Source: Adhaeretor mobilis
GTDB taxonomy: Bacteria > Planctomycetota > Planctomycetia > Pirellulales > Lacipirellulaceae
DNA: 64,000 nucleotides
Direction: 5' to 3'
NCBI RefSeq assembly: GCF_007741515.1
Contig: NZ_CP036263.1
Coordinates: forward strand, 3,023,178-3,087,177
Positions 6,208 to 35,560 of the stretch are shown here, piece by piece. The stretch's first letter is position 1; every line of letters begins with the position of its first letter. The translations under genes and the position numbers were made by a program. The notes beneath the pieces are model-generated. The model was given only the letters and a program-made list of their open reading frames with translations, had not been told where the DNA came from and searched no databases.

Positions 6208-7407
6208 TCAAGTTAGCGTAGCCGTCTTGATGCGTGTCGCCAGCGACTGCAAGTCAGTCCCCCTAAGCGCGCCTTCCACCAGCTCAGGCAATTTCTGCGG
6301 CGTGCAGCCAAAGCAGGGAATTCCCAGACTAGCTAGCTTTTTAGCTAGCCCTTCGTCGTAACTGGGAATGCCACTATCAGACAGGGCGAGAAGGCACAGC
6401 ACACGAACTCCGGATTCGACCATCTCACTCAGCCGACGCACTAACTGCGCTTCGTTGCCACCCTCGTATAGGTCGGTTAGAAGGATAAAGAGCGTCTCGC
6501 CTGGTTCGGTGATGAATTGCTGGCAATAGGCCACTGACTGATTGATATCCGTACCGCCTCCCAGTTGAACTCCGAACAACATATCGACCGGGTCATCGCC
6601 ACATTGTTCGGTTAAATCGACTACCTCAGTATCGAACGCCACGACATGCGTCTTAAGCGCTGGCAGGCTGGCGAAGATTGAGCCAACCACCGCGCCGTAG
6701 ACAACCGATTCAGCCATTGAACCACTTTGATCCATGTCGACAATGACCGTCCAATTGTTCGTGCGCTGGGCTCTTGAATAGAAATAGACGCGTTCGGGAA
6801 TCAAAAGCCCGAGTTCGGCGTTGTAATTCTTGAGATTGCGCCCGATTGTCCATTTCCAGTCGATGCTATTCACATGGGGAATTGGCGAGTGTTCGTTGCG
6901 GTTGAGTGCGCCAAGTACCGCCTGTCGTATTTTCTGTTCGAGCGAAAGCTTGATCTTGTCGACTACGGCCCGCACAACCATCCGAGCCGTCTCTTTTGTG
7001 CGTTCCGGGATTTGACCTTTTAGCGCCATCAGTGTGCCCACTAACTGGACATTCGGTTGGACATTCTTGAGCATCTCGGGCTCAAATAACAACTGCGTCA
7101 TTCCTTTACGCTCAATCGCGTCTTGTTGGATAACGGTGACGACATCTTCTGTGAAATATGTGCGGACGTCCCCTAGCCATTTTGCCAACCTAGGGGCCGA
7201 CTTCTCGAGACCGGCGCCCCGAGACGAAGATTGTTCCGCATCCGTTTCATCGTAAATCGCCGCAAGCGCTTCATCCATTAGCAGTTGATCGGCACTGAGT
7301 GCCAGCCCTCCCGAGCTGTAGTCGGAGAGTTGATCTTGAGAGTCCTTGCCTAGAATCAAACGCCAACGGCGAAGTTGAGCGTCATCGATCGCTTTTTCAT
7401 TCGTCAT
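6208..7407 (-). CDS. von Willebrand factor A (VWA) domain protein with MIDAS motif
   Basis: VIVDMDQSGSMAE (DxSGS MIDAS); last gene of the five-gene minus-strand operon; YehP-like. Confidence 0.7.
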   Translation of the reverse strand: MTNEKAIDDAQLRRWRLILGKDSQDQLSDYSSGGLALSADQLLMDEALAAIYDETDAEQSSSRGAGLEKSAPRLAKWLGDVRTYFTEDVVTVIQQDAIERKGMTQLLFEPEMLKNVQPNVQLVGTLMALKGQIPERTKETARMVVRAVVDKIKLSLEQKIRQAVLGALNRNEHSPIPHVNSIDWKWTIGRNLKNYNAELGLLIPERVYFYSRAQRTNNWTVIVDMDQSGSMAESVVYGAVVGSIFASLPALKTHVVAFDTEVVDLTEQCGDDPVDMLFGVQLGGGTDINQSVAYCQQFITEPGETLFILLTDLYEGGNEAQLVRRLSEMVESGVRVLCLLALSDSGIPSYDEGLAKKLASLGIPCFGCTPQKLPELVEGALRGTDLQSLATRIKTATLT

Positions 7408-7445
7408 AACAATCGCCTGATTATTGATTTGCCGATGGTTAGAAC

Positions 7446-9827
7446 TCAGAGATCATCAAAATCAAACTCGTTCAAATCGTCGATGGCCTGTTCCTCATCC
7501 TCCAAAAGGGGTTGCGATAGCACTTCGCTGGTCAGGTCTCCACCGACTCCCCAACATTCGCCAAGATTCTCGGAGATCGATCGTTTCTCCTGCGGGCTGA
7601 AGCTGCCAAACGCTCTGCGCAGAAAAACCAACGCCCGTGAAAACTGTTCGTCGTCCAACGACTTGACGTAGTCAGCCAGTTGTTCCCATAAAACTTGGCG
7701 TGCCAGCAGAGCATAGCGATTCCTGCCGGAAAGGCCTTCAAACCATCCGGCTCCCAAGTCGGCTTCGATTCCAGGAGATAAACGACGCGAAACTTCGCGA
7801 CCGAGTTGCTCGTTAGTGATCTCGTTGCGTTCCAGCAATATTGCACAAGCGTAACCCGAAAGCAGCGGGTTGTGATCGTCAGCGTCTGAAAGGTTGTGTA
7901 ATTGCGCGATCCAAGCAGGTTCGTCAACTTGGTCGTGGTACTCCAAGGCGACTTTATTCAAAGCGTCCATGCCACTTGCGATTGGCTTTGCTGCGTCGTT
8001 GCCACAATTCGTCGCGTGGAACAGTCCCAGCGTGCCTTGTACGAATAGTGCTTCGATCAAGGGCACCAGAGGCTTCGGATCGAACTGACGCACATCCCCA
8101 TAGCGGACCACGACTGAAAGCTCCTGAGCCGCCTGCGCAATCGACGGAAACGCCGAAGTATCTGCTGACAGTCTTTGCAAAACGCCGCGTGCTTGGTCCA
8201 TCGCACGCATCATCCCGCATTCGCACGCTAAGCGGACCATTGAACCAGCGGCACCGATAGTCGTGCATTTTTCCAATTCTGTTTTGAACTTAAAAGCTGC
8301 TGCCAATTCGACGGTTTCTCCCAATAGAACGGCTTCGACAAGGCCGATTTCTGCTCCGGGCGTCCAGTGCAAGTGCCAACGTTCGCGCCAGGTGGTTGAT
8401 TCTTGCTTGTCTGGCTGAGGCGCGGCAAACGAAACCTCCAGCAAGGACAGACGATTAAGGAACGAAGATCGGCTCAAGTCCAGAAACGCGGCCGCTTCGG
8501 TTTTCGCCCGTCGGTTCTCGCGTAGATCGAGTGCCAGCTCTTGTTTCACGCCTTCGCGATATTTCGTTAGTTTCAGCCTCTCTAGTTCTCGGTCAAAATC
8601 TTCTTGTATTGAGGTCTGACTGACCCCCTTGGGTAATCGTCCGATGGCGGTACCGACTTCCACGCGTGCTAGCGACTCTTGCACGACCGAGCGTTCACCG
8701 TGTCCTATCAGTGTGATCGCCGCGTCCTGTAAGTCTCGCAAAGTGGGAGCTAATCCCTCCTTAAGGGCCGAAAGTGTTTTGGCTAAGCGCACGCCCTCGA
8801 TGACTTCCGCTGTCGAACGGGACGTTCCGGCCTTGCGGAGGTGTCGTGTAACCAACGAGAGGTAACGCGCCGGCAATTGTGACAATTCGTCGGCCTCAAT
8901 GGCCTCCCACAGCAACTCGAAGTAGGCGGGAGCGCGATTGCCAGCGCCGTAGCCCGACTGCGAGGAAAGCTTGAAATACGAGTAGGGCATCAACGTGAGC
9001 TTGCTCGCCAAAGAGCTGAGCGATTCCAGCTCGCTGTCTGTCATGGCAGGCTCGCCATCGTTTAGTACCGGCGCATGAAATGCGCCTACGATCGCCACGA
9101 CTTTCTCGGCAGGGCAACCGCTGGCAAGGACATGCTGAATCCGTCGCCGCATGTACGCTTCGCGAACAAGATTTTCCGCATGAAAAAAAGGTTCTCGACT
9201 GTCGCACTCACGGAGTCCCCGGCCGAATTCAAAGGAGGATTGACGATAGGCATCGGCAGCTCCGTTGTGCTCGAAATTCCGCTCCCAATAGCTTTCGTAG
9301 TCGTGTTCGCCGACTAGTTCCGCCATTCGTGCATACATCGCCCACGACGCCTCGGGAGCGCTGTTGTCGCCAAGCGTCTCGCCATTTGCATCTTCAACAG
9401 GAGGTTCGTCAGGCCTTCTTTCTCCTTCTTCCTCTTCGGCAGCTATCTCGGCCTGTAACTCTGCCAGCCGCCTTTCCTCCTCGTTTGCTTGCAACGCTAA
9501 GAATTTGTCGGATGGCAAGTCAAAGAATTCGACACGTGCCTTGTTTTCCTTAGACCAGGCAATTGCCTGATACTCGGGACTATACTTTGCCAACGGATAA
9601 ACGAGCGTACGAACCGGCACTTCTTGGGTATATGCAAGAATTGCAATTGGCGGCTGCGTTCCCTTGCGAACGATGTCCGAGATCAAGTAGGTCGCATCCT
9701 CCAAGCCTTCCACCAACACGACCCGAGGTTGCACTTCGTCCAAGAACCGGCGCAGCTGCCAAGCTCCCATCGGTGACAGATGGCGAACTCCAAACGTTGG
9801 CACCATGGTTTCTGTCGTTTTAGGCAT
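7446..9827 (-). CDS. large uncharacterised protein (793 aa), YehM/DUF5682-like by position and size
   Basis: no catalytic motif recognised; acidic Glu/Asp-rich segment in the middle; translationally coupled (overlaps the upstream ATPase gene by 8 nt). Confidence 0.45.
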   Translation of the reverse strand: MPKTTETMVPTFGVRHLSPMGAWQLRRFLDEVQPRVVLVEGLEDATYLISDIVRKGTQPPIAILAYTQEVPVRTLVYPLAKYSPEYQAIAWSKENKARVEFFDLPSDKFLALQANEEERRLAELQAEIAAEEEEGERRPDEPPVEDANGETLGDNSAPEASWAMYARMAELVGEHDYESYWERNFEHNGAADAYRQSSFEFGRGLRECDSREPFFHAENLVREAYMRRRIQHVLASGCPAEKVVAIVGAFHAPVLNDGEPAMTDSELESLSSLASKLTLMPYSYFKLSSQSGYGAGNRAPAYFELLWEAIEADELSQLPARYLSLVTRHLRKAGTSRSTAEVIEGVRLAKTLSALKEGLAPTLRDLQDAAITLIGHGERSVVQESLARVEVGTAIGRLPKGVSQTSIQEDFDRELERLKLTKYREGVKQELALDLRENRRAKTEAAAFLDLSRSSFLNRLSLLEVSFAAPQPDKQESTTWRERWHLHWTPGAEIGLVEAVLLGETVELAAAFKFKTELEKCTTIGAAGSMVRLACECGMMRAMDQARGVLQRLSADTSAFPSIAQAAQELSVVVRYGDVRQFDPKPLVPLIEALFVQGTLGLFHATNCGNDAAKPIASGMDALNKVALEYHDQVDEPAWIAQLHNLSDADDHNPLLSGYACAILLERNEITNEQLGREVSRRLSPGIEADLGAGWFEGLSGRNRYALLARQVLWEQLADYVKSLDDEQFSRALVFLRRAFGSFSPQEKRSISENLGECWGVGGDLTSEVLSQPLLEDEEQAIDDLNEFDFDDL

Positions 9828-10941
9828 TCTGGTCCGAACAGGCGTTGAACAGTGGCCGCCAGCTCGCCCCTCGTTTTTTCATGACGTTTTTCAGATACTC
9901 AGACCAAACGACATGATCTTTTTCTTCGTCTTTTACAACTGAGCCCTGTAATGCAGCCGCGATATCTTCGTCGGTGATGGTCCCTGAGCCGAAGTTGCCG
10001 GCGAGCGCCATGCTGTTGGCTAGAAGCGAAATGGCTTCTGCTGTCGATAGTACACCGGATGGCGATTTCACTTTATTTTTGCCATCAAGGGTCTGCCCCG
10101 ATCGCAACTCGCGGAAGATGGTCACAACCTTTTCTACCGCATCCTCAGTGGGCACTTCAGCCTGGAGGTCAAGATTCGATGCTAGTTGCTCAACGCGGCT
10201 AGTCACAATTTGAATTTCTGTTTCGATGCTGGCCGGAGACGGAAGCACGACAAGATTGAAACGTCGCTTGAGCGCTGCCGACATGTCGTTGACTCCCCGA
10301 TCGCGGGTGTTAGCCGTTGCGATGACCGAAAAACCTTTTTGGGCGGGGATTTCTTTTTCGAGTTCGGGAAGCGAAAGTCGTTTCTCGGAAAGCAGCGAAA
10401 TCATCGCGTCCTGTACTTCCGAAGCACAACGCGTGATCTCTTCAAAACGAGCGAGTGATCCTTCTTCCATGGCGCGATAAACCGGACTTTTGATCAATGC
10501 CTGATCGCTGGGACCGCTGGCAATGAGCATCGCGTAGTTCCAGGTATATCGAATCTGCTCTTCGGTTGTGCCGGCCGTGCCCTGCACCACTTTTGTTGAG
10601 TCGCCGTTGATGGCAGCTGCCAGGTGCTCTGACAGCCAGGACTTGGCGGTCCCTGGCTCGCCAATCAAAAGCAATGCGCGATCGGTGATCAAGGTAGAAA
10701 TTGCGATCTCGACCAAACGCTGATTGCCGACGTACTTGGGAGTAATCGCCAACTTGCCCGAATTGCCACCGCAGATGTAAGTCAATACCGCCCGAGGCGA
10801 CATACGCCAACCCGTGGGCTTTTCGTGCATATCGTTCTTGATTAGCTCGTCGATTTCTTCTGCGAAAAGGATCTCAGCAGGTTGCCGAAGCATTTTGCCA
10901 TTGGATTCTTGAGTCATCTTCGGAGCCTGTTTTTTTGCCAT
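9820..10941 (-). CDS. AAA+ ATPase, MoxR/AAA_5-like (YehL-like)
   Basis: Walker A LLIGEPGTAKS, Walker B/sensor region ATANTRDRGVNDMSAALKRRF. Confidence 0.7.
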   Translation of the reverse strand: MAKKQAPKMTQESNGKMLRQPAEILFAEEIDELIKNDMHEKPTGWRMSPRAVLTYICGGNSGKLAITPKYVGNQRLVEIAISTLITDRALLLIGEPGTAKSWLSEHLAAAINGDSTKVVQGTAGTTEEQIRYTWNYAMLIASGPSDQALIKSPVYRAMEEGSLARFEEITRCASEVQDAMISLLSEKRLSLPELEKEIPAQKGFSVIATANTRDRGVNDMSAALKRRFNLVVLPSPASIETEIQIVTSRVEQLASNLDLQAEVPTEDAVEKVVTIFRELRSGQTLDGKNKVKSPSGVLSTAEAISLLANSMALAGNFGSGTITDEDIAAALQGSVVKDEEKDHVVWSEYLKNVMKKRGASWRPLFNACSDQNA

Positions 10942-10948
10942 GGTACAG

Positions 10949-12760
10949 TTACCTTGTTTTCTGCTTCAGTGTGACCAGATGCGGCGTGATTTGGTCGATA
11001 TACGATTCAGACAATCCCTCAAGAGCAGATTCTACCTTCTTGGTTGCTGATTTAGGGAGTTTAGAGATTAGCGGGAACAACCAATAAGAGATTCCGTAGT
11101 GGTTGTTCTTCTTTTTAGACGCAGCGATGATCGTTGCCAGCAAAAGTTCGGGGGCTTGTTTGTGCTTCATCTCGATCAACTTTTCAAGGGCGTGCGTACT
11201 TTCCCAGCCATCGAGCTTATGGCCTCGGCTTTGCACCCAGCTGACCAGAAAGTCGCCCGCTGTTTTGTGCTTGGCATTGGCCAAACGGCAAACAACCTCC
11301 ACGTCTTCTGTCTCGATGGCCAAATCAATCCAGCGTGGGTCCCACTTGGCCTTACTAAGCATTTCTTTGTTGACATCGCCGCCATGGCATTCCAGGAAAT
11401 ATCCATATGTGTGGTCACGCGAATCACTCCCCAACAGAGAAGCAACGATTTCTCGCTGACCTTTCTTTGATCTGCGGCTGCCTTTAGTGCCATCGTAGTA
11501 CCCTCGCAACTCATCGAATGCCTGCTTCGGCGTACGCGTGACCAACACTGCGACCACCGACGATAGGAAAGCATTCGTAGCTTCGTCATCCAATGTTGAG
11601 TGGATGTCGGCAACCACCAGTAACAGCTTCTTGTCGCCAGTAGATACCATCACTGAACAGAGGCTTTCCAATAGGGTATCGCCACCGATAATTGCGGTGA
11701 GCTTTTCACGACCGTTGAACAGGCCTAGTAGCATGTCACTCGTCGATTTCTCATTTCGGCCATAAAAACAGCTTATTAGAACGTCTAATCGATTGACGAG
11801 GCTTTCACGTTTCTTTTTTTCTTTCGCCTTGAGCAGATCGTCGAAACAGGTCTTAGTTTGCTGCTGGGCGATCGCCAATATTCTGGTGTTGCGGGTTTCA
11901 CGGATTGGTTTCACAACCAAATCAACATCCCCGCTGCAAATCGCCTGTTCAAATACGTTGTCGACCTCCTTGCCCTTGAAAAGCGACAGGCGATCCAAGA
12001 CTACACGACGAACGTCCTTCGCTTTCGCTTTTATTTGATCAAGCAAATGCGGCAGATCTTTCTTCGAGTCACCCAAGCAACAGAGTGCTGCAATCTTCAT
12101 TTCCTTCGAGCCCGAGTCGAAGGCTGCTTCGACAATTGGTCGCGCAGTCTCGGGATCGAGTTGATACAGTAACTTCAGACGCCTCACGTTACCCGCTCTG
12201 CCCTTGATGTCGATTCGATCTTTGATTTCGGGGAGAATTGCTGGCCCATACTTGGGCAGAACCTTCTCTGCGACAAAATCCGCAAGCTCGGGGTAAACGT
12301 CGTTCAAGGCGTTGATGGCTGGATTGATTAGCCTCAAGTCATTGAAAGCACCGCGATCAAACGCTTCTTGCACTGTTTCCAATCGACCAGAACCCGTGGT
12401 GCTTAGGGCTTCGAGCAGTGGTTTCAGTACGCGAGACGAAACCTGTGTTGTGCTGATTCCTACTTCCAGGGACTCGATCGCTTTGGTCGCTCCCTTCACA
12501 CCCGTGGCGCCCTGCGTATACAAGATCGCCAGCAGGAGTGAGCTCAAATCTAATAATGCTTGAGGCGAATTCTTTTCATCGCCGTCAACCAGTTGCTCGA
12601 TGCTGTCAGCGACTTTCGTGAACACCGGAGCCTTATTGCTCGACTTTCGCAAAGGTTCTACCAGCTTCTTCAGGCGAAAATCGCCAACCGCCAAATTGCT
12701 GCCGGCAATCGTGAGGCGTCGCGTTTCGTCGTAAACCTGATTCAGTACTGCAATGCTCAT
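10949..12760 (-). CDS. hypothetical protein (603 aa), operon member
   Basis: ORF only; lies between the SWIM and ATPase genes on the same strand with 8-57 nt spacers. Confidence 0.4.
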   Translation of the reverse strand: MSIAVLNQVYDETRRLTIAGSNLAVGDFRLKKLVEPLRKSSNKAPVFTKVADSIEQLVDGDEKNSPQALLDLSSLLLAILYTQGATGVKGATKAIESLEVGISTTQVSSRVLKPLLEALSTTGSGRLETVQEAFDRGAFNDLRLINPAINALNDVYPELADFVAEKVLPKYGPAILPEIKDRIDIKGRAGNVRRLKLLYQLDPETARPIVEAAFDSGSKEMKIAALCCLGDSKKDLPHLLDQIKAKAKDVRRVVLDRLSLFKGKEVDNVFEQAICSGDVDLVVKPIRETRNTRILAIAQQQTKTCFDDLLKAKEKKKRESLVNRLDVLISCFYGRNEKSTSDMLLGLFNGREKLTAIIGGDTLLESLCSVMVSTGDKKLLLVVADIHSTLDDEATNAFLSSVVAVLVTRTPKQAFDELRGYYDGTKGSRRSKKGQREIVASLLGSDSRDHTYGYFLECHGGDVNKEMLSKAKWDPRWIDLAIETEDVEVVCRLANAKHKTAGDFLVSWVQSRGHKLDGWESTHALEKLIEMKHKQAPELLLATIIAASKKKNNHYGISYWLFPLISKLPKSATKKVESALEGLSESYIDQITPHLVTLKQKTR

Positions 12761-12817
12761 GGTTCTACTGTCTCTTATGGCCGTTCACCCATGCGGTGAT
12801 ATTCGTCACTGAAACTC

Positions 12818-14272
12818 TCACAATGTCAGTCGGTAAATCTGTGACTTGGTAATAATGCTCAGTGGTTTCACCTTGAGCGTGTGAGAATCGAGATCATGAT
12901 GAAATCTGGCAATCAAGGTCTGGTCTTTGTGCATTTCTTTTGGCAACAACCATAATAAGTGACAACTGGGCGGCTCTTCGGACAACCCAGACTCGGTAAA
13001 CGCAATTCGATCCCCTTGTGTATCTTCCACGACCAGCTTGTTACCAACAGTTGCTATTTGCGAATAACTCAGGGCCGCAATGGGGCGCTTGTTAGCCAGT
13101 GGCGACTTCAAATCACCTTTGATCTGTTTTACCAAAGCGGCAAAAGTCCTTTGGCCATGGCAGCGGATAGCCTGCAAGTCTTTGCCGTCAATTTGCCGTG
13201 TTGTTGCCGCATCCCAACGCACACGCGGATTCACTTTCCCTGGGTAGCGACACAGCTCTGGCACTTGTCTTACTTGGAAAAAGCTGTCCTCACTCTTGAT
13301 ATATTTTACCGCTTTATACGGGCGAAATGTCTGAGTTAACTGGATGACACCAGTTGCAAGATTCATCCAAACGCCCGTGTCAACGAACTCGCGCCGCGCC
13401 ACGTCGTCGTATGAATTAAATGCTAACTGAATGAGCTCGACGTTTGATTCGACGAGGCCCGCCGTCTTCAATTCGCTCAACTGCCACGCATGCCCCAACC
13501 ACTCCGCAATGGGCGTGTCTATTTCTGGAGCAAGTTCCGCGTCCGCCAGTCGCTCGGAGAGGTACTTGCGACCCTGTTTCACCAAGGCATTTAACTGAGT
13601 GAGTTGGGCCATCGCTTCGCTATAGACTCGCTCGCGATTCTTGGCGGATATTTCGGCATCGAAGTACCAGTCATCTTCGACAAACAACTTCGTGTAGTTG
13701 TGGAGTGCAGACTGTGCGCCGGGCAGGTATGCATTGCCGAGTTGCTTGGCTTGGTCTTCGATTTGCCGCGCGAGCTTGGCATTCATGTTGCCCATGCCGG
13801 CGCGGACTAGATCGTGCGTTAGCTGTTCGAGCAAATCAAGGCCTTTTAGCTTTGCGGCGATCTTCTTTTTGAGTGCCGCCTTGTTAATCTTCTTGGGCTT
13901 CGTAGCTTGCTCTTGTCGTTTCTGCACCCGCTGCTGCGCCTTGGCTCGTTTCTCTGCAATATCTTCGGGGATTCCTGCCGCTTTGAACTTTTTGCCGTCT
14001 GCATACGCGTACATCAAACCCAGACAGTGCTTGCAAGGAAATTGACGGCTCGGGCAGGAGCATCGGTAGACGGGCTTTGCAGGATCGAGGAAGTCACACG
14101 AACACACATAGTTGGATTGGCCACTCCCCGAGCACTCACCAAAGATTAGTGTGTCGTCTTTGCTTTTATGAAGTTCGACGAACTTGCCTTTTACCAACAA
14201 TCCGCGGCCATTCTTAATAGCGTTGCTGTTGGGAGCTTCTCCGTCGATAAAATCTTCATTGATCTCAATCAC
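12818..14272 (-). CDS. SWIM zinc-finger protein (YehQ-like)
   Basis: CxCx(n)CxH SWIM signature YVCSCDFLD...YRCSCPSRQFPCKHCLGLMY. Confidence 0.65.
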   Translation of the reverse strand: MIEINEDFIDGEAPNSNAIKNGRGLLVKGKFVELHKSKDDTLIFGECSGSGQSNYVCSCDFLDPAKPVYRCSCPSRQFPCKHCLGLMYAYADGKKFKAAGIPEDIAEKRAKAQQRVQKRQEQATKPKKINKAALKKKIAAKLKGLDLLEQLTHDLVRAGMGNMNAKLARQIEDQAKQLGNAYLPGAQSALHNYTKLFVEDDWYFDAEISAKNRERVYSEAMAQLTQLNALVKQGRKYLSERLADAELAPEIDTPIAEWLGHAWQLSELKTAGLVESNVELIQLAFNSYDDVARREFVDTGVWMNLATGVIQLTQTFRPYKAVKYIKSEDSFFQVRQVPELCRYPGKVNPRVRWDAATTRQIDGKDLQAIRCHGQRTFAALVKQIKGDLKSPLANKRPIAALSYSQIATVGNKLVVEDTQGDRIAFTESGLSEEPPSCHLLWLLPKEMHKDQTLIARFHHDLDSHTLKVKPLSIITKSQIYRLTL

Positions 14273-14502: not shown

Positions 14503-15636
14503 TCAAACACCCTTGTAAGTCAGCAATGGACTCAATTCTCGGATAACCCGAGTAAGGTCTCGCTGGGCTTTCATAACTTGCCTGATGTCCTTGTAAGCTG
14601 CCGGTGCCTCGTCACGCAGTTTCGTGGTCCGTCGATGGTCGTACCACAGTCCCCCAACCTGTCGAGCAAACTCTTTGCCACCAATTTTCTGTCGTGCCTC
14701 AGTGCGACTGAGCTGACGGCCTGCTCCATGCGAACAAGTCGTAAGGGCATCTCTGCAGCCCCTGCCCAGGGTATGGAAACTGGCTGCTCCCATTGAACCT
14801 GGAACAATCCCTGGTTCGTTTGCTATAGCAGACTGTGCTCCTTTCCGATGTATCCATCGCCATTCACCGTCGTGCACCTCGCGCTGCACATGATTGTGGT
14901 CGCAGTGAATTAGGGAATCCCAGTCTGCTTTGATACCAAATAGTGTGTCCAAGAGCTGAGTAACCGCTGCCATCATGGCAAGGCGATTCTCAGCAGCGTA
15001 CTTACGAGCCCATTGGACATCAGATAGGTAGGCTTGACCTTGCCCCTCAGCCGTATCTAGCCATTTGAGGCCAGATTCTCCAGTGTTAGCGCTTCTCATG
15101 TGACGTTCCATGACCGCTTGCCCGATTGCGCGTGAGCCGCTGTGGATCATCACCCAAAGTTGGCCGCCCTGATCAGACTGGAGTTCCAGGAAATGATTTC
15201 CACGCCCTAACGTCCCTAGCTGCACGCGACCCTCCCTGTCAGCGATTCGCTGCAATCGCGCATCACTTAGCTGCAAGATCTCTAAACTTACTGGAAGTTC
15301 GCGCAGCTGTTGATGCTTATTAGCAGGTACACACTCGTAAAGTCCAGCTAGTATCTTTGCCGCCGAATGTTCGTTATCGATGGCAGTTGCCTCAACATCG
15401 AAAGAGACCGCGGCCATGCCACACCCAAAATCACCACCTACAGCAGACGGGTAAACGAGATCTTTCGTAGCAACTACGGCGCCGATGCAGACATCTCTGG
15501 ATAGATGCACGTCAGGCATCAAGGCAACATGCTGAACATCGTCTGAACTGCGCAAGCGATCGACTGACCGTGACACCTCTCGTGAGAGAGGCTCCATTAG
15601 CCACGTTGTCAAAGGTGCTAAGTCAGCTTGTGTCAT
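14503..15636 (-). CDS. compact RtcB-family RNA ligase paralog (377 aa)
   Basis: MPDVHLS...GGDFGCGMAAV, HNHVQ, HRKGAQ, GSMGAASFHTLGRG, CSHGAGR: all RtcB metal and GMP-binding motifs present, but short. Confidence 0.75.
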   Translation of the reverse strand: MTQADLAPLTTWLMEPLSREVSRSVDRLRSSDDVQHVALMPDVHLSRDVCIGAVVATKDLVYPSAVGGDFGCGMAAVSFDVEATAIDNEHSAAKILAGLYECVPANKHQQLRELPVSLEILQLSDARLQRIADREGRVQLGTLGRGNHFLELQSDQGGQLWVMIHSGSRAIGQAVMERHMRSANTGESGLKWLDTAEGQGQAYLSDVQWARKYAAENRLAMMAAVTQLLDTLFGIKADWDSLIHCDHNHVQREVHDGEWRWIHRKGAQSAIANEPGIVPGSMGAASFHTLGRGCRDALTTCSHGAGRQLSRTEARQKIGGKEFARQVGGLWYDHRRTTKLRDEAPAAYKDIRQVMKAQRDLTRVIRELSPLLTYKGV

Positions 15637-16139
15637 TGCTGCACCTCGTTCGATTTTTCATTGCTGGTGCAATCAGGCCCAATAACGTTAAACACTAATG
15701 TAGGTGTTTTCTTGCGAGTGATACTGGCCGCAATCTCATAACGCAGCTGCCCATGCCGAACTGCCAATTGCTGTTCGATTGTGTCGCGATCAAAACCCTC
15801 GGGATCACAGTCTGCATAGAGAGTCACTAGTAGCCGGGATGCGTCCGGTGCAGGCACAACGCCAGACACGCGGAGTCCTCGGAGAACGTCGTCACTAATC
15901 TCGCCCGACAATACTTGGTCGAGAGTTTCCGCCACCTGGCGGCAAAGTTGCTTAGTCTTACGATCATCTTTCTTGTGGATACGACTTGCTTTGAAGAACT
16001 CACGAGGGTCGGTACCATCGTCTTCGTGGATTTCACCACAATGCGCAAGCATCTGCTCACGCGTACGCTTATCAAGCGGCATGTTTGTCTCGCTGATTAG
16101 AAATGTGGCTGCGCAACGATTGCGCAGACAGACTGACAA
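15633..16139 (-). CDS. RbfA-like (ribosome-binding factor A family) protein with N-terminal extension; overlaps the rtcB paralog by 4 nt
   Basis: pattern QLCRQVAETLDQVLSGEISDDVLRG.RVSGVVPAPDASRLLVTLYADCD...AVRHGQLRYEIAASITRKKTPTLVFNV parallels RbfA ([41 protein letters not shown]...[22 protein letters not shown]); true start may be an internal Met. Confidence 0.45.
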   Translation of the reverse strand: MSVCLRNRCAATFLISETNMPLDKRTREQMLAHCGEIHEDDGTDPREFFKASRIHKKDDRKTKQLCRQVAETLDQVLSGEISDDVLRGLRVSGVVPAPDASRLLVTLYADCDPEGFDRDTIEQQLAVRHGQLRYEIAASITRKKTPTLVFNVIGPDCTSNEKSNEVQQ

Positions 16140-16436
16140 AGAAGAATCAGTAGTGAGCGAGAGCCTGGCCTAGCTGGGACCAGTCGAGCGTCCGAGATGA
16201 CGCGTAGAGGTCCTCAGCAAGAGCACAAGCTCTGAGGCACAGGGATAGGTAGTATCGATTGCACGGTAGAGTCTCCTATGTGACGACCGGTATGCGCTTG
16301 CCGTCGTGATAGTTGCAAGTCACCGGAACTCTGCTGGCAGTGACATGGGACGATTCATTAGACCCACTTGAAGGCTGAAGGTTCACCATCTCCTTAAATA
16401 GCGAGATTTTCGTAAAGAGCGATTGACGACCCACAC

Positions 16437-16461
16437 GATAGTGTATAGGTTACACTAACGG
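16437..16461. promoter_or_regulatory. candidate NrtR operator: palindrome TAGTGTA-taggt-TACACTA, 16 nt upstream of the pncB start
   Basis: perfect 7-bp inverted repeat; related half-sites TTAGTGTA and ACACTAAG recur upstream of nrtR. Confidence 0.4.
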
Positions 16462-16476
16462 AAGGGAGTAGCTGAC

Positions 16477-17955
16477 ATGCTTGATGAACTCTACCGACCG
16501 CCATTGGCCCTGTTAACCGATCTCTATCAGCTGACGATGGCCTATGGCTATTGGAAATTAGGCCGCGCCGAAGAGGAGGCTGTCTTTCACCTGTTTTTCC
16601 GTAAACCGCCGTTTGAGGGAGGTTATGCGGTAGCCGCTGGTCTAGGGCCAGCGCTGGAGTATTTGCAAGCCTATCGGTTTAGCGAGTCTGACATCGAGTA
16701 TCTCGGTACGCTTACTGGTAACGATGGCGAGCCACTTTTTGAGCCTGAGTTTCTCGGCTACTTAGCAGATCTTCGGCTAACGGTAGACGTCGATGCTATG
16801 CCTGAGGGAACGGTAGCATTTGGGCAGGAGCCGCTGCTTCGTGTAAAGGGGCCAATCCTTCAGTGTCAGCTGCTAGAAACGCCGCTGCTGAATATCATCA
16901 ATTTCCAAACGCTCATAGCGACGAAGGCTTCGCGAATCAGCACTGCGGCTGCTGGTGAACCGATCCTCGAATTCGGTTTGCGACGTGCCCAAGGCATCGA
17001 TGGAGCGCTGGCAGCCAGCCGAGCGGCTTATGTCGGCGGATGTGCAGCAACATCAAACGTTCTCGCCGGGAAGTTGTACGGCATTCCAGTGAAGGGAACC
17101 CATGCCCACAGTTGGGTCATGTCGTTCGACACAGAAGTCGATAGCTTTGAGCGTTACGCTGAGGTAATGCCCAATAACTGCGTCTTCCTGGTCGATACGT
17201 ACGACACCCTTGAGGGTGTTCAGCAGGCGGTCGAGGTGGGAAGAAAGTTACGCGAGCGTGGCCACGAAATGGTTGGAATTCGCCTAGATTCAGGAGATCT
17301 TGCCTACCTGAGTATAGAAGCTCGCAAGATTCTTGATGAAGCTGGTTTTCCGGAAGCAGCCATTGTTGCCTCGAATGATCTCGACGAGCATATCATCGAG
17401 AGCCTGAAGAATCAGAGAGCAAAGATCGCTGTCTGGGGAGTGGGCACGAAACTTGTTACGGCTTACGATCAACCCGCTTTGGGAGGTGTCTACAAGCTTG
17501 GAGCGTTACGAGATAACGACGGCAAATGGCATCCCAAGATAAAGCTTTCAGAGCAAGTGATTAAGACTTCGATCCCCGGTACTCTTCAGGTGAGGCGTTA
17601 CGAAGATGCTAACGGCCTCATCGGTGATATGATTTTTGACGAGACAAATGGCATCGATGACCGTGGGATCATTGTTGACGCGAAAGACCCAACGCGTCGC
17701 AAAAAGATCGCAAGCAACGCGAATGCTGTCGACCTACTTCGGCCTGCATTCCGTGCAGGCAAAGTAGTGGCAGAGCCGGAGAGCTTGGAAGTTATTCGCC
17801 AGCGAATGCACGAGAACATCGAGCGACTCCATCCAACGGTCCGTCGTTTTATGCATCCTCACGAGTACCCAGTTGGGCTGGATGTTGGGCTGCACGAACT
17901 GCGAGATGAAATGATACTGCAAGCTAGGCAAGTTCGACTGGAGATGGCCCCATGA
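16477..17955 (+). CDS. pncB: nicotinate phosphoribosyltransferase
   Basis: NAPRTase-family N-terminus [15 protein letters not shown] and overall architecture. Confidence 0.85.
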
Positions 17956-19928
17956 AGCTAATCCGCGTGGCTGCAGCCGCACTGAATCAAACGCCGCTTG
18001 ATTGGGACAACAATACGTCGAACATCCGAGCTGTGATTCACACAGCCCGCTTGCGCGGAGTCAGTGTACTTTGTCTGCCAGAGCTAAGCATTACTGGCTA
18101 TGGCTGTGAGGACGCTTTTTTCTCTCACGCCGTTCAGCAGTCAGCTCTAGATGTGCTGCAAGAGATTGCGCCACTTACGACGGGTTTGGCTGTCGCCGTT
18201 GGGCTGCCGCTGCTGCACGCCGGTGCTCTCTATAACACCTCTGCGCTCTTGGTCGATGGTCAGCTGAAGGGCTTCGCTGCGAAACAGCGACTTGCAGGCG
18301 ATGGCTTGCATTACGAACCTCGTTGGTTCAAAGCGTGGCCGGCAGATACCGTTGCCTCGATTGCTATCGACGGTGAGAAGTATGCAATCGGTGACCTGCT
18401 CTTTGATGTAGGCGGAATCCGAATCGGCTTTGAGATTTGCGAGGACGCTTGGGTTGCTGAGCGCCCTGCCAAAGACCATGCCAAGCTGGCTGCGGACATC
18501 ATTTTGAACCCTAGTGCTAGCCATTTTGCGTTCGACAAAGCGGCGGTTCGCCAGCGTCTAGTAATCGAAGCATCGCGTGCTTTCGGGGTCACTTATGTTT
18601 ACAGCAATCTGATTGGCAACGAGGCGGGGCGCATCATTTACGACGGGCAGACGCTTATCGGTACCCATGGCGAATTAGTTGCTCGCGGTTCACGATTTAG
18701 CTTTCAGCCGGTGACCGTTTGCGACGCGGTTGTTGATATCGATGCCACGAGAATGCGTCGAGTTCAGTCTAGCAGCTATGAGCCGCAAATCGACGTTGAT
18801 CAAAATCGCGTAGTTGACGTGAGCTATACGCTCGAAGCTGCAGACCCAGAGGCTGCCAACTTAGATTCAAACACTTGGGAACAAAGTAATTGCTTGCAAG
18901 AGGAAGAGTTCACGCGGGCGATCGCTCTAGGGCTCTACGATTATCTTCGCAAAAGCCACTCCAACGGTTTTGTGGTCTCGCTCAGTGGAGGCGCTGATTC
19001 AGCTGCTGTGACGTGCCTAGTGGCTCTTATGGTGAAGATTGGCTGCGAAGAAGTAGGGATAGGGGCCTTTGCAGGCAACACTGCATTGAGCAATCAGAAT
19101 GCACCGACACAGGAAGCACTAGTCCATCAATGGCTCACCACAGTCTACCAGGCAACCAAGAACAGCTCTAAGACAACAAAGAATGCTGCACGCATTCTAG
19201 CTGAGGCGGTCTCCGCACACCACTACGAACTCGACGTTGAGGACATTACGGAGAGCTATACGAAGAAGATTGAAGAGGCCTTGAGCCGCGAGCTTACTTG
19301 GGAGCAAGACGACATCACACTGCAGAATATTCAAGCTCGGGTCCGTGGACCTGGTGCCTGGATGCTAGCCAACATCAACAATGCGTTGTTGCTCGCCACT
19401 AGCAATCGCTCGGAAGCTGCCGTTGGCTATGCGACAATGGACGGAGATACTTGTGGAGGCATTAGCCCGATAGCTGGGATTGATAAAGCTTTTCTGCGCA
19501 AGTGGCTGCAGTGGGTAGAACGTGAAGGACCTCAAGGCATTGGGCCCATCCCTGAACTAGCTGCAGTCAATCAGTTGCAACCGACTGCCGAGTTGCGGCC
19601 GCAGGAAGCGGGCCAGATAGATGAAGAGGATCTCATGCCTTACGAACTGCTGGATGCGATTGAGCATCAGGCAATTGGAGAGAAACGATCCCCACAGGAG
19701 GTCCTCACGGCAGTTTCTGCCGAGTTCGACCAATACACTAGTGAGCAACTGGTAGTTTGGGTTCGCAGGTTTTTCCAGCTCTGGAGTCGAAATCAATGGA
19801 AACGGGAGCGGTACGCCCCTTCGTTTCATGTCGACGACAAGAATCTGGATCCAAAGACATGGTGCCGGTTCCCTATTCTCTCGGGCGGTTTCCAACGCGA
19901 GCTAGCAAATCTGGAATCGCCCAAATAG
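17952..19928 (+). CDS. nadE: glutamine-dependent NAD+ synthetase (CN-hydrolase + NAD synthetase domains)
   Basis: N-terminal nitrilase-like domain, C-terminal PP-loop SGGADSAAV; start overlaps the pncB stop (ATGA). Confidence 0.85.
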
Positions 19929-19980
19929 CTCGATCCTGCTGTACTTTCCCAAATATTAGCGGAGTAATCGTCAAAGCCCT

Positions 19981-20033
19981 TGACTTAGTGTAACTATCAC
20001 ACCATAATAGTGTCGATAGGACACTAAGTGACA
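19981..20033. promoter_or_regulatory. candidate autoregulatory NrtR half-sites upstream of nrtR
   Basis: TGACTTAGTGT (19981-19991) and ACACTAAGTGACA (20021-20033) inverted relative to each other; inner imperfect palindrome GTGTAACTATCACAC. Confidence 0.3.
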
Positions 20034-20055
20034 TTGATGTTATCTGGAGCTCAAT

Positions 20056-20745
20056 ATGGCCCATGCCTACGAATTCGCCCGCCCTGCCTTGACGGTTGAT
20101 ATCGTCGTGTTCGCACTCGACGAGGAAGACCTGCAAGTCATGCTCATTGAGCGTGACCTAAAGCCCTTCGAGGGCCAATGGGCATTGCCGGGCGGCTTTG
20201 TGAGAGTTGACGAAACTTTGGAAGAGGCAGCGCGACGTGAACTGGAAGAAGAGACGGGCCTAAAGGACATCTATTTGGAGCAACTTTACACGTTCGGCGA
20301 CATCAAGCGTGATCCGAGAGAACGTGTTGTCACCGTGACCTATTACGCCCTGGTCAACTTAGAGGGACATGACGTACAAGCCAGTACAGATGCTCGCAAT
20401 GCAGCTTGGTTTTCTATGAATGATCTGCCCAAGCTGGCGTTTGATCATAAAACGATTCTTCGTGCGGCCCACGAGCGATTAAGGGGCAAGGTGAGATACC
20501 AGCCTATTGGATTCGAACTATTGCCAGAGAAGTTTACTCTCCGACAAATGCAGCATCTCTACGAGGTAATTCTCGATCGCGAATTGGACAAGCGGAACTT
20601 TCGCAAGAAGGTGCTCGGGATGGAGATTGTGAAAGAGACCAAAGAGATTGAGAAGGACGTCGCACACCGAGCAGCACGTCTCTACCGGTTCGATAAACGC
20701 AGATACGACAAACTTACCAAACAAGGTTTCAACTTCGAGATTTAG
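20056..20745 (+). CDS. nrtR: NrtR-like Nudix-related transcriptional regulator (Nudix domain + C-terminal winged HTH)
   Basis: Nudix box [24 protein letters not shown]; C-terminal [14 protein letters not shown]...NFRKKV; sits beside pncB-nadE as in described NrtR regulons. Confidence 0.65.
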
Positions 20746-33037: not shown

Positions 33038-33110
33038 GGCTTGGTACGGGAATCGAACCCGCGACTTCCAGAGTCATGGTCTGGTGCTCTACCCACTGAG
33101 CTAACCAATG
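33038..33110 (-). tRNA. tRNA-like, 73 nt; good D and T arms, anticodon loop CCATGAC (non-canonical C33), isotype unresolved
   Basis: minus-strand TAGCTCAGTGGGTAGAGC D-arm, GCGGG-TTCGATT-CCCGT T-arm; positions 1-72 and 2-71 mispaired. Confidence 0.4.
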
Positions 33111-33232
33111 GTGGTCTTGCCTCGCCTTCGTAATAATCCAATCACGGAACACATCACACCGACCACTAACGTAGGGTGCAATGCGCCGCTGGCCCAGCGA
33201 CGACAAATCCTTGCTTAAAAGTTCTTGCTAAG

Positions 33233-33303
33233 AGACGCCGGTGGGAGTCGAACCCACTTCAACCGGGTTGCAGCCGGTGGCCTAGCCGTCTGGCTCCAGC
33301 GTC
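33233..33303 (-). tRNA. tRNA-Cys (GCA)
   Basis: acceptor GACGCTG/CGGCGTC, anticodon stem-loop ACCGG-CTGCAAC-CCGGT, T-arm GTGGG-TTCGACT-CCCAC. Confidence 0.7.
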
Positions 33304-33312
33304 TTTCTTAAG

Positions 33313-33384
33313 TAGCCCATCCAGGAGTTGAACCTGGCCCTCGACCTTCGCAGGGTCGCGTGCAATCCACCACACTCACAGGCT
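33313..33384 (-). tRNA. tRNA-Arg (GCG), tentative anticodon
   Basis: anticodon arm CGACC-CTGCGAA-GGTCG; T-arm CCAGG-TTCAACT-CCTGG. Confidence 0.5.
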
Positions 33385-33389
33385 ATAAG

Positions 33390-33461
33390 TACCGTGTCAG
33401 GGAATCGAACCCCGTCCCGCAGTTTCGAAGACTGCGATGCTATCCAGCACACCCACACGGC
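33390..33461 (-). tRNA. tRNA-Arg (TCG)
   Basis: GCAGT-CTTCGAA-ACTGC; T-arm CGGGG-TTCGATT-CCCTG; only 5 nt from the previous gene. Confidence 0.6.
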
Positions 33462-33469
33462 ATGTTTAG

Positions 33470-33541
33470 TATCTCGACCTGGAATCGAACCAAAACTTGG
33501 ACTTTAGGAGAGTCCTGTGCGATCCGTTACACCATCGAGAT
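33470..33541 (-). tRNA. tRNA-Arg (CCT)
   Basis: perfect acceptor ATCTCGA/TCGAGAT; GGACT-CTCCTAA-AGTCC. Confidence 0.65.
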
Positions 33542-33545
33542 ATGG

Positions 33546-33633
33546 GGCCGACGACTGGATTCGCACCAGCATCAACCGCCGCTCTTTCAATGAACGGGGC
33601 AAAACCGGTGCCTAGCTATTCGGCCACGTCGGC
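33546..33633 (-). tRNA. aberrant 88-nt tRNA-like: canonical acceptor, D and T arms, Ser(TGA)-like anticodon arm CGTTC-ATTGAAA-GAGCG, plus a 13-nt extra hairpin between D and anticodon arms
   Basis: acceptor GCCGACG/CGTCGGC perfect; T-loop TGCGAAT. Confidence 0.35.
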
Positions 33634-33637
33634 AAAG

Positions 33638-33707
33638 CACGAGTGCAAGGATTCGAACCCTGTCCGTCAGTTTTGGAGGCTGACTGCTCTCCCAGGAGCA
33701 CACTCGT
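33638..33707 (-). tRNA. tRNA-like, 70 nt, 9-nt anticodon loop (CCTCCAAAA); isotype unresolved
   Basis: acceptor ACGAGTG/CACTCGT perfect; T-arm CAGGG-TTCGAAT-CCTTG. Confidence 0.35.
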
Positions 33708-33713
33708 ATTGAG

Positions 33714-33787
33714 GGTATCCAATGGGAGTCGAACCCATACTTCCTGCTTCACAGGCAGGCGTGCGTACCACGTACACTACAGACACC
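33714..33787 (-). tRNA. tRNA-His (GTG) with encoded G-1
   Basis: G-1 opposite C73; CCTGC-CTGTGAA-GCAGG; T-arm ATGGG-TTCGACT-CCCAT. Confidence 0.6.
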
Positions 33788-33796
33788 ATATATAAG

Positions 33797-33868
33797 TAGC
33801 TCGACCAGGATTCGAACCTGGAACCTCTCGTTAGAAGCGAGACATGATGTCCGTTTCACCATCGAGCC
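33797..33868 (-). tRNA. tRNA-Arg (TCT)
   Basis: TCTCG-CTTCTAA-CGAGA; T-arm CCAGG-TTCGAAT-CCTGG. Confidence 0.65.
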
Positions 33869-33890
33869 ATTTCATAGAATCAACTTCCAG

Positions 33891-33979
33891 CGGAAGGCAT
33901 GGGATTTGAACCCACATGACCTTTGTAAAGTCGCACGGTTTAGCAAACCGGCCCGGCGAGCCGTATAGGGCTACCTTCC
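33891..33979 (-). tRNA. tRNA-Ser (GCT), type II with long variable arm
   Basis: anticodon loop TTGCTAA; variable hairpin GACTTT-ACA-AAGGTC; T-arm GTGGG-TTCAAAT-CCCAT. Confidence 0.55.
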
Positions 33980-33990
33980 ATCTTTTTCAG

Positions 33991-34077
33991 TGGACCCACT
34001 GGGAATCGAACCCAGCCAGGTCCCTAGAGAATTGGCCAGCCTGCCGAGCTGGTGTCTTCCCTTTTGACCATGAGCCC
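33991..34077 (-). tRNA. type-II-length tRNA-like (87 nt), anticodon loop TCGGCAG (C33), isotype unresolved
   Basis: acceptor GGGCTCA/TGGGTCC (two G-U); T-arm CTGGG-TTCGATT-CCCAG. Confidence 0.35.
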
Positions 34078-34082
34078 TAAAG

Positions 34083-34153
34083 TGGAGCGTCGGGGAATCG
34101 AACCCCGATTGCCTGGGTGCAAGCCAAGCGTCTTCCCGTTGGACCAACGCCCC
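34083..34153 (-). tRNA. tRNA-Ala (TGC)
   Basis: G3-U70 identity pair; CTTGG-CTTGCAC-CCAGG; T-arm CGGGG-TTCGATT-CCCCG. Confidence 0.7.
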
Positions 34154-34169
34154 ATTAGTTTTCCTAAAT

Positions 34170-34240
34170 AGGTCCGTCCGGGAATTGAACCCGGTCCTCG
34201 TCCTTACCACAGACGTGTGCCGCCGAAACACTTACAGACC
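34170..34240 (-). tRNA. tRNA-Thr (GGT)
   Basis: CGTCT-GTGGTAA-GGACG; T-arm CCGGG-TTCAATT-CCCGG. Confidence 0.6.
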
Positions 34241-34250
34241 AATCATCAAG

Positions 34251-34323
34251 TGATCCCGGATGGAGTCGAACCATCGCTTTCCTGGTTGTCATCCAGGCGT
34301 CTTAGCCGTTGGACCACGGGATC
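34251..34323 (-). tRNA. tRNA-Val (GAC)
   Basis: perfect acceptor GATCCCG/CGGGATC; CCTGG-ATGACAA-CCAGG. Confidence 0.7.
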
Positions 34324-34329
34324 ATTAAG

Positions 34330-34405
34330 TGACTAGGGTGGGAGTCGAACCCACAAAATCATCAGACTCTCGACCTGATCGCTTTGCCAGTTTGCGTACC
34401 CAGTC
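34330..34405 (-). tRNA. class-I tRNA-like with Leu-type anticodon region (TCAGG-TCGAGAG-TCTGA, GAG?); D-arm CGC-AAACTGGCAAA-GCG shared with 35215..35293
   Basis: T-arm GTGGG-TTCGACT-CCCAC; no long variable arm. Confidence 0.35.
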
Positions 34406-34428
34406 ATTTTTTTTGTTGTTCTCCCTTA

Positions 34429-34926
34429 ATGAACGAAAACAAAATCGCATTGACCCAGGCGGATCTTATCCCGCTTGAAGACTTCGAATTGTGCTGGCGG
34501 TGGAGAGACCCGCAATACATACTCCTTGCGGACGAAGAACTATCCGAAATCACTCCTCTATGTCCAACTGCGGCGCAAAAGGTCTACTCTGTTGCGAGAT
34601 CGTTTACCCTCGACTCTTCCTTTCGTTTGTCGTCGTCTCTCTTTCGAGAATGTGTTGATTGCGACACTTCTGGCGAGCCCAGCGACGGGCGAAAGTGGCT
34701 CGAAAGAGTCACACGATCATTTGATCCTTCACTGGACATTGTTGTAACGTGGAGCGAGGAACTTGCTGTCGCAACGAAGTTGTGGCTGTTCGTGAAATAC
34801 TGGGACGACTTTTGCTACCCGATGTCGGATGACACTACGGTGTTTCCAAGTGAATTAAAGTGGGCAATTCAGTATTGGCACGAAGAACATCTTTACTTTG
34901 GCAAATACGTTCGACAGTCAGATTGA
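34429..34926 (+). CDS. hypothetical protein (166 aa from MNENKIAL) embedded in the tRNA array on the opposite strand
   Basis: ORF only; Trp/Cys-rich; fills the one gap in the array. Confidence 0.35.
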   Translation: MNENKIALTQADLIPLEDFELCWRWRDPQYILLADEELSEITPLCPTAAQKVYSVARSFTLDSSFRLSSSLFRECVDCDTSGEPSDGRKWLERVTRSFDPSLDIVVTWSEELAVATKLWLFVKYWDDFCYPMSDDTTVFPSELKWAIQYWHEEHLYFGKYVRQSD

Positions 34927-34951
34927 TCGCAATCTAACTCATTCATATAAA

Positions 34952-35021
34952 GTTGCGGCATCGGGGGTCGCACCCGACGATCCAGGCTTATGAGGCCCGG
35001 TTGAGCACTGGCTCACCCGCG
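34952..35021 (-). tRNA. tRNA-Met (CAT)-like, probably degenerate
   Basis: canonical anticodon arm CGGGC-CTCATAA-GCCTG, but T-loop TGCGACC and an acceptor stem that does not close. Confidence 0.3.
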
Positions 35022-35033
35022 CTAGTTTTCTTA

Positions 35034-35105
35034 GTAGCCCGTACGGGATTCGAACCCGTGCCGCGAGATTGAGGGTCTCGCATCCTGCCGCTAGACCAAC
35101 GGGCC
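35034..35105 (-). tRNA. tRNA-Glu (CTC), tentative (C33)
   Basis: CGAGA-CCCTCAA-TCTCG; T-arm ACGGG-TTCGAAT-CCCGT. Confidence 0.45.
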
Positions 35106-35117
35106 ATGTTGCTTTCA

Positions 35118-35199: not shown

Positions 35200-35214
35200 C
35201 ATGTCTTTCATCAA

Positions 35215-35293: not shown

Positions 35294-35300
35294 TTAGTAA

Positions 35301-35375: not shown

Positions 35376-35391
35376 CAGAGTTTTTGTTGCA

Positions 35392-35465: not shown

Positions 35466-35481
35466 CATTCTTATTTATGAA

Positions 35482-35554: not shown

Positions 35555-35560
35555 CATGTA

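Follow-up and report, generated by a model that had tools for sequence, protein, structure and literature searches.

What does a second RtcB RNA ligase do in a bacterium that also carries a complete Rtc RNA-repair operon, when its gene is overlapped by that of a small protein resembling ribosome-binding factor A (RbfA)? The question is raised by a gene pair of Adhaeretor mobilis (Planctomycetota; Pirellulales; Lacipirellulaceae) located in a stretch of 64,000 nucleotides (nt) of contig NZ_CP036263.1 (assembly GCF_007741515.1, positions 3,023,178 to 3,087,177), which we call the window and by whose positions coordinates are given unless a locus is named. An earlier examination of these letters without database searches (the sequence-only reading) had proposed that the pair repairs 16S ribosomal RNA (rRNA). 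The analysis described below indicates that the two genes belong together in many bacteria, that the small protein is a divergent relative of RbfA, and that a role in mending the 30S subunit is a plausible, though tentative, explanation of the association.

A compact RtcB coupled to a small upstream gene

The pair consists of the following features.

15633..16082, minus strand: RbfA-like gene, 149 amino acids (aa), an open reading frame (ORF) with its ATG at 16082..16080
16083..16139, minus strand: in-frame stretch starting with TTG, probably noncoding 5' untranslated region, as homologues align from the ATG
15642..15647, minus strand: Shine-Dalgarno-like GAGGTG for rtcB, inside the last codons of the RbfA-like gene
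15633..15636, minus strand: ATGA stop/start overlap
14503..15636, minus strand: predicted compact RtcB 3'-phosphate/5'-hydroxyl RNA ligase, 377 aa (Pfam RtcB)

The longest upstream ORF (15633..16139, minus strand) begins with TTG and has 168 codons, the length adopted by the sequence-only reading. This length was not borne out. Homologues of the small protein are 144-150 aa long, carry the N-terminus M-[PT]-L-D-K-R and align from the equivalent of the ATG at 16082, which is therefore the likely start and gives a product of 149 aa. The four-nucleotide overlap and the intact catalytic motifs of RtcB, both claimed earlier, are present. The stop codon of the RbfA-like gene and the start codon of rtcB share the ATGA at 15636..15633, and the GAGGTG (15647..15642) is positioned 5 nt ahead of the RtcB ATG. 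The shared ATGA indicates that the two genes are probably translationally coupled. The pair is flanked by a divergent NAPRTase gene upstream of the RbfA-like gene and by a SWIM-domain gene on the RtcB side.

The ligase matches Pfam PF01139 with 275 bits (cut-off 27). In an alignment with Escherichia coli RtcB1, the 500-aa RtcB encoded elsewhere in the window and six members of the same clade, all ten residues checked are kept (D75, C78, N167, H168, H185, R189, H281, H337, R341 and R345 in E. coli RtcB1 numbering). These comprise the metal-binding Asp, Cys and His residues, the guanylylated His, and the Asn and Arg residues that bind GTP and phosphate. The description as a compact paralogue is accurate, since the protein has only 377 aa and shares 36% identity with the 408-aa E. 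coli RtcB1 and 26% with the 500-aa RtcB of the window. As judged from its sequence, it is a catalytically intact ligase of a distinct compact clade, for which NCBIfam holds no model. We considered and rejected the possibility that it is an RtcB2, the ligase coupled to PrfH. The models for PrfH-coupled RtcBs, TIGR03073 and NF007153, give it 142 and 187 bits, under their respective cut-offs of 272 and 407, and no prfH gene adjoins it in the window. E. coli RtcB1 scores alike on both models (143 and 173 bits), so that the compact RtcB has no special affinity to RtcB2.

The small protein belongs to the RbfA family

Measured by single-sequence scores, the resemblance of the small protein to RbfA is weak. 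The match to Pfam RBFA (PF02033) has E = 3e-7 and covers 89 of the 105 positions of the model, and all curated RbfA models score the protein below their cut-offs: 31.1 bits for PF02033 (gathering score 34.7), 18 bits for TIGR00082 (cut-off 51) and 14 bits for NF001802 (cut-off 142). No other Pfam family matches. Profiles and fold give a firmer answer. The RBFA model is matched at E <= 0.01 by 44 of 45 family members drawn from many phyla, and a profile search of the PDB with 45 family members finds RbfA chains only, with 1jos best (3.8e-7) and 2dyj, 1kkg, 7afl, 8bxa and mitochondrial RBFA after it. An AlphaFold2 model of the protein (mean predicted local distance difference test score, or pLDDT, 75.5; about 77-92 per 10-residue block across residues 41-140) has the alpha-beta-beta-alpha-alpha-beta order of an RbfA-type KH fold at approximately residues 43-135. 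When this model is compared with the PDB by Foldseek, each of the top 16 matches is an RbfA from bacteria or mitochondria, the best of them (1jos, 7afq and 2dyj) with a target-normalized template modeling score of about 0.75 and a root-mean-square deviation of 2.2-2.6 Å. Era and further KH proteins come after RbfA in these results. The identity proposed by the sequence-only reading thus stands, and the fold, which might have proved to be another, is predicted to be that of RbfA. We conclude from the profile matches and the modeled structure that the protein is a divergent RbfA-family member.

Like canonical RbfA (PF02033/TIGR00082; PDB 1jos, 7afl), the protein has a type-II KH fold. Aligned with it, the family conserves the glycine and following arginine of the helix-kink-helix element (G-x-x-R) and the strand R-K-R-x-P-x-L-x-F, which corresponds to the canonical R-x-x-P-x-L-x-F. 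It differs from canonical RbfA in its sub-cut-off scores, in a near-invariant Cys in helix 1 (QLCRQV), and in an N-terminal extension of about 40 aa that is poorly modeled and carries a motif of its own, C-x-E-x-H-x-DDG-x-DPR-x-FF. The DDG-x-DPR part of this motif is most strongly represented in Planctomycetota, and acidobacterial members lack it. The gene is also coupled to rtcB instead of standing in the infB-rbfA-truB context of canonical rbfA. Searched with a profile of the RbfA-like proteins, a set of 1.84 billion clusters formed at 50% identity yields 1,886 representatives with E <= 0.001, of which 1,371 reach E <= 1e-10. By these matches the proteins are a discrete and sizeable family.

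The name now attached to the protein raises an alternative. Both proteins of the pair have identical (100%) database entries from A. mobilis; that of the small protein is annotated ribosome-binding factor A, and NCBI, UniRef and JGI all use that name. The protein could thus be the housekeeping RbfA of planctomycetes, fast-evolving and N-terminally extended. RtcB would then ride in its operon and serve routine 30S biogenesis or quality control, and the cassettes of other phyla would have been acquired from Planctomycetota. The distribution of the DDG-x-DPR motif is in keeping with such an origin. However, the TIGR00082 score is far from its cut-off, no infB gene adjoins, and the number of representatives is far below what is expected of a universal gene. 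In addition, another member of the order, Rhodopirellula baltica, possesses an rbfA gene (RB5503; product of 137 aa, pI 5.1), and the slot next to it, about 3.3 kb, would hold one gene of the size of infB (PMC2754498). This arrangement suggests that a canonical rbfA may exist in Pirellulales. Compared by size and mass, RB5503 matched none of the RbfA-like family members that we retrieved. On balance we consider the housekeeping explanation unlikely.

The two genes are found together across phyla

To describe the distribution of the pair we searched the GTDB species, each represented by a single genome, with an alignment of the compact RtcB and retained the 80 best loci, whose RtcBs are 44-64% identical. 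According to record titles, these comprise 38 from Planctomycetota (Pirellulales, Planctomycetales and Phycisphaerae/Tepidisphaerales), 17 from Acidobacteriota, 13 from Myxococcota or 'delta' groups, five from Gammaproteobacteria (Ca. Parabeggiatoa and Steroidobacteraceae), one each from Nitrospira, Methylomirabilota and Riflebacteria, and four unclassified. One locus begins at a contig end, which leaves 79 testable. In 77 of these, rtcB is directly preceded on its own strand by an RbfA-like gene. The sequence-only reading had made its proposal depend on finding the pair in other genomes, and this co-occurrence is now established in at least seven bacterial phyla and amid differing flanks. Taxonomic labels of metagenome-assembled genomes (MAGs) may carry binning errors; the breadth is backed by isolates (Lacipirellula, Nannocystis and Planctomicrobium) and by several MAGs per phylum.

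The junction between the genes is conserved as well. Of the 80 pairs whose junction could be resolved, 47 overlap by 4 nt and 23 by 8 nt, and a GGAG, GAGG or AGGA core precedes the RtcB start by 8-20 nt (mostly 9-14) in 70 of 81 loci, falling inside the last codons of the partner gene. The surroundings vary. Lacipirellula limnantheis, Pirellulimonas nuda, Planctomicrobium piriforme and a further MAG have the same pair in different settings, with a MarR gene, a ferredoxin gene or others as the upstream neighbor; in these and in the window RtcB is always downstream of the RbfA-like gene. A conserved third component was sought by clustering the ORFs flanking about 78 loci and was rejected, the largest family occurring in only seven.

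The two proteins also co-diverge. Their pairwise identities correlate with r = 0.79 over 75 loci, compared with a maximum of 0.11 in 500 label permutations, and in the Steroidobacteraceae cassettes the nearest relatives of both proteins are acidobacterial. The cassette thus moves and diverges as a unit. This mobility also counts against the housekeeping explanation, and the phyla concerned are known to possess a canonical rbfA already. A chance neighborhood with no functional link could appeal only to the fact that gene order is generally scrambled in Planctomycetota, and it is refuted by the near-universal pairing, the conserved overlap and the internal Shine-Dalgarno sequences, which persist across phyla and flanks. 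The two genes very probably form one functional unit.

A candidate module for repair of the 30S subunit

The two best-known endonucleolytic injuries of 16S rRNA are the cut made by colicin E3 or CdiA-CT at A1493/G1494 and the removal of the 3' tail by MazF. Canonical RbfA acts close by. On the free 30S subunit it occupies the messenger RNA (mRNA) exit channel, grips the 3' end of 16S rRNA at U1531-C1535, wedges against h28 and keeps the linker between h44 and h45 unfolded or disordered (PMC8177701). Since this site and both injuries share the 3' minor domain, an RbfA paralogue is a plausible means of addressing a ligase to damaged 16S rRNA. Two precedents exist for the ligation itself. RtcB2 mends only 30S subunits cut at A1493/G1494, in the free subunit and not in the 70S ribosome, from which PrfH frees it (PMC9304027). 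RtcB religates 16S rRNA cut by MazF, as the sequence-only reading had noted and as is reported (PMC5416887). Considering the gene context together with the binding site of canonical RbfA, we assign a probability of roughly 45% to the reading that the pair is a 30S/16S repair module analogous to PrfH-RtcB2.

In such a module the RbfA-like protein would be the targeting subunit for the RtcB coupled to it. It would dock at the canonical RbfA site, hold the severed 3' fragment of 16S rRNA on the damaged 30S subunit, keep the linkers of the decoding center accessible and present the break. RtcB would then reseal 2',3'-cyclic-phosphate or 3'-phosphate ends to 5'-OH ends in the 3' minor domain, the candidate breaks being a cut of the colicin E3/CdiA type at A1493/G1494 and a loss of the 3' tail of the MazF type. 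The pair would thereby do the same job as PrfH-RtcB2, with a paralogue of an assembly factor in place of a paralogue of a release factor, and would work separately from the RtcR/sigma-54-controlled Rsr-YrlA-RtcB-RtcA operon of the window.

RtcB2-PrfH of E. coli ATCC 25922 (PMC9304027, PMC9223846, PMC13166195) is among the closest known systems. Both are two-gene operons, apart from an RtcR-controlled rtcBA operon, in which a compact RtcB (about 380 aa in RtcB2-PrfH) is joined by a paralogue of a ribosome-binding translation factor. The substrate proven for RtcB2-PrfH, the 16S rRNA in free 30S subunits, is the one proposed for the pair. In contrast to that system, the partner here is an RbfA-family KH protein and not a release-factor homologue, so that it cannot release peptides from stalled 70S ribosomes and the pair would act on free 30S subunits only. 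Moreover, the compact RtcB falls outside the RtcB2 clade, the genes are ordered partner then ligase and overlap, and the carriers are mainly Planctomycetota, Acidobacteriota and Myxococcota.

A more specific version of the repair reading, which we hold with less confidence and regard as somewhat doubtful, is that the pair represents a second, PrfH-independent pathway of ribosome repair in which an RbfA paralogue serves a dedicated RtcB as adaptor, or 'splint', at the site of damage. The 30S subunit, cut in the 3' minor domain of its 16S rRNA, would be kept in a state like that of assembly, be religated and then pass again through the last steps of maturation. An RbfA association might be listed in what is reportedly the main comparative survey of RtcB neighborhoods, that of Burroughs and Aravind. 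We found no link between RbfA and RtcB, or between RbfA and an RNA ligase, in the full-text literature that we searched, which did not cover that survey (Burroughs and Aravind 2016, NAR 44:8525).

Evidence against a repair module and other explanations

Several observations weigh against the repair module. We scanned metagenome contigs in the reverse direction, using an alignment of planctomycete-type RbfA-like proteins as query, and obtained 56 loci. RtcB is directly downstream in 25-27 of these, and 11 are too short to tell. Of the others, three have only about 250 nt of downstream sequence, while 15 have at least 600 nt and contain no RtcB anywhere in the locus. About one third of planctomycete-type RbfA-like genes are thus without an adjoining RtcB, and they are interspersed with coupled ones (the protein of L098 is 76% identical to that of the coupled locus L011). 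Their neighbors are unrelated, with the exception of L096. There are also two RtcBs of the clade, in L056 and L060, that truly lack an RbfA-like partner. The KH fold binds RNA generally and not rRNA alone, and the RbfA-like protein could be the ordinary RbfA of A. mobilis and not an additional paralogue. PADLOC contains no model of either protein. Finally, apparent fusions of the two proteins provide no Rosetta-stone support, because they are frameshifted assemblies. These are L043 (531 aa) and P0408/P0410 (519/524 aa), which we rejected as frameshifts in long-read assemblies. In them the RbfA part loses its conserved C-terminal motif by a change of frame, the two genes are separate in the nearest relative of L043, which is 97% identical to it, and the neighboring RtcB in L088 is split.

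The reverse scan rules out a strict two-way association. The RtcB clade is paired with few exceptions, yet RbfA-like genes occur without RtcB, and the association is therefore one-way: the RtcB clade essentially requires the partner, while the RbfA-like gene can be encoded alone. The interpretation given by the sequence-only reading is supported in part, with this one-sidedness as a caveat. Solitary occurrence in unrelated contexts is what a gene with a function of its own would display, and it favors the housekeeping explanation.

Some loci have further features. In L096 (1039..2953) the RbfA-like gene is divergent to a gene for the RtcA RNA 3'-phosphate cyclase, and this is the sole uncoupled locus with another RNA-repair gene nearby. 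L088 (3001..5965) has a second RtcB frame, split by frameshifts, directly after the cassette, and in L111 (2..692) the 3' end of an RtcB gene is directly upstream of the RbfA-like gene; these are hints of tandem cassettes or tandem RtcBs in some genomes. In L056 (3113..5443, minus strand) a long antisense ORF is situated just downstream of the partnerless RtcB and convergent with it, and its C-terminal part resembles, by reading, the RNA 2'-phosphotransferase Tpt1/KptA.

The RbfA-like protein might instead be a general RNA-binding cofactor or activator of RtcB with a role like that of Archease. The substrates would then be not the ribosome but transfer RNAs (tRNAs) or mRNAs that anticodon nucleases or toxins have cut. 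Many RtcBs need, or gain from, a small partner encoded next to them, and in archaea, some bacteria and metazoa this is Archease, which modulates the ligase. The generic RNA binding of KH folds and the divergent rtcA of L096 agree with such a role. However, the protein has no similarity to Archease in sequence or fold: no Archease domain was detected by Pfam and none was present among the Foldseek matches. Archease is not known to bind ribosomes. The matches of the small protein are specifically to RbfA, ahead of Era and other KH proteins, and all RbfA proteins characterized so far, from bacteria and mitochondria alike, act on the small subunit. A full tRNA-oriented Rtc operon is, in addition, already present in the genome. 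We consider an Archease-like role rather improbable.

Alternatively, the pair might be a mobile accessory cassette of anti-phage defense or inter-bacterial conflict, in which the RbfA-like protein senses the status of the ribosome and RtcB heals RNA cuts inflicted by phages or toxins; its role would then not be one of housekeeping repair. The patchy distribution across phyla, the cross-phylum nearest neighbors and the variable flanks are consistent with this, as is the match of one PHROGs RtcB family to the compact RtcB. Against it stands the lack of a PADLOC model. No member of the RtcB clade was found on PLSDB plasmids, the best match being 38% identical and having no RbfA-like neighbor. Toxin, immunity and mobile-element genes are not recurrent in the flanks of the roughly 78 loci, among which no search was aimed at ribotoxin genes. 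We regard a conflict cassette as quite improbable, and it overlaps with the repair module rather than excluding it.

Surroundings of the pair and the second Rtc locus

On its upstream side the pair adjoins an NAD salvage cluster (16477..20745, plus strand) encoding NAPRTase, NAD synthase and the regulator NrtR. Pirellulimonas nuda also has an NAD salvage cluster beside the pair (L002, 7695..12260), and there it continues with a nicotinamidase-like gene of the isochorismatase family, a NUDIX gene and the RNA 2'-phosphotransferase Tpt1/KptA. Downstream of the compact RtcB, at a distance of 230 nt, is a cluster of five genes (6208..14272, minus strand) for a SWIM zinc-finger protein, a 603-aa HEAT-like protein, a MoxR-type AAA_5 ATPase, a DUF5682 protein and a CoxE-like VWA protein. 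Clustering of the flanks shows that these five genes are not conserved beside the pair in other genomes. No RNA elements or repeats were found around the pair.

The sequence-only reading had placed a canonical rtcBA locus apart from the pair. Such a locus is present about 24 kb away and is richer than had been stated: it is a complete Ro60-type Rtc locus (37786..45109) comprising RtcR, Ro60/Rsr, two YrlA RNAs, the 500-aa RtcB, a 237-aa ORF and RtcA. The individual features are these.

43526..45109, plus strand: RtcR, assigned as part of the Ro60-type Rtc locus
43336..43351, minus strand: sigma-54-like TGGCACGCCTGCTGCA, upstream of rsr, recognized by sequence
41697..43310: Ro60/Rsr, assigned as part of the same locus
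41219..41415 and 41070..41199: two YrlA Y-RNA-like genes, likewise
38852..39565, minus strand: 237-aa ORF between canonical RtcB and RtcA, overlapping both ends

As in other operons of the RtcR/sigma-54 Rsr(Ro60)-Y RNA-RtcB-RtcA type (cf. PMC7790460), an RtcB is encoded here, and its catalytic residues are identical to those of the compact RtcB. The longer ligase, RtcA, Ro60, the YrlA RNAs, RtcR and a sigma-54-like promoter are found at this locus only and not with the pair. Control of the pair by RtcR and sigma-54 was rejected, as no site resembling TGGCAC-N5-TTGC occurs in 16083..16476 and the only well-placed one is upstream of rsr. The 237-aa ORF has no match in Pfam or PADLOC and may be an uncharacterized component of the Rtc operon.

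Directly downstream of rtcA are 30 tRNA genes on one strand (33038..37156, minus strand), including unusual anticodons (His-ATG and Ile-TAT) and duplicates. Long tRNA arrays near rtcB and other RNA-repair genes have been reported (PMC8421152). The array in the window appears to continue the Rsr-YrlA-RtcB-RtcA transcription unit.

Implications for RtcB function

Most bacterial RtcBs have no known substrate, and beyond rtcBA the sole case defined by a partner is PrfH-RtcB2, which acts on the decoding center of 16S rRNA. Substrates have been assigned to only three of eight RtcB similarity clusters, leaving five orphan (PMC9304027). The RbfA-like proteins are at present named plainly 'ribosome-binding factor A', an annotation problem that the pairing would help to correct. 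For the compact RtcB, the fold of the partner points to a place on the 30S subunit beside the cut sites of colicin E3/CdiA and MazF. Because that place is specific, the hypothesis can be tested with existing assays, namely ligation of toxin-cut 30S subunits and protection against colicin E3. If it is true, the splint pathway would supply one of the five orphan RtcB clusters with a substrate and would show that ribosome repair can re-use the machinery of ribosome biogenesis.

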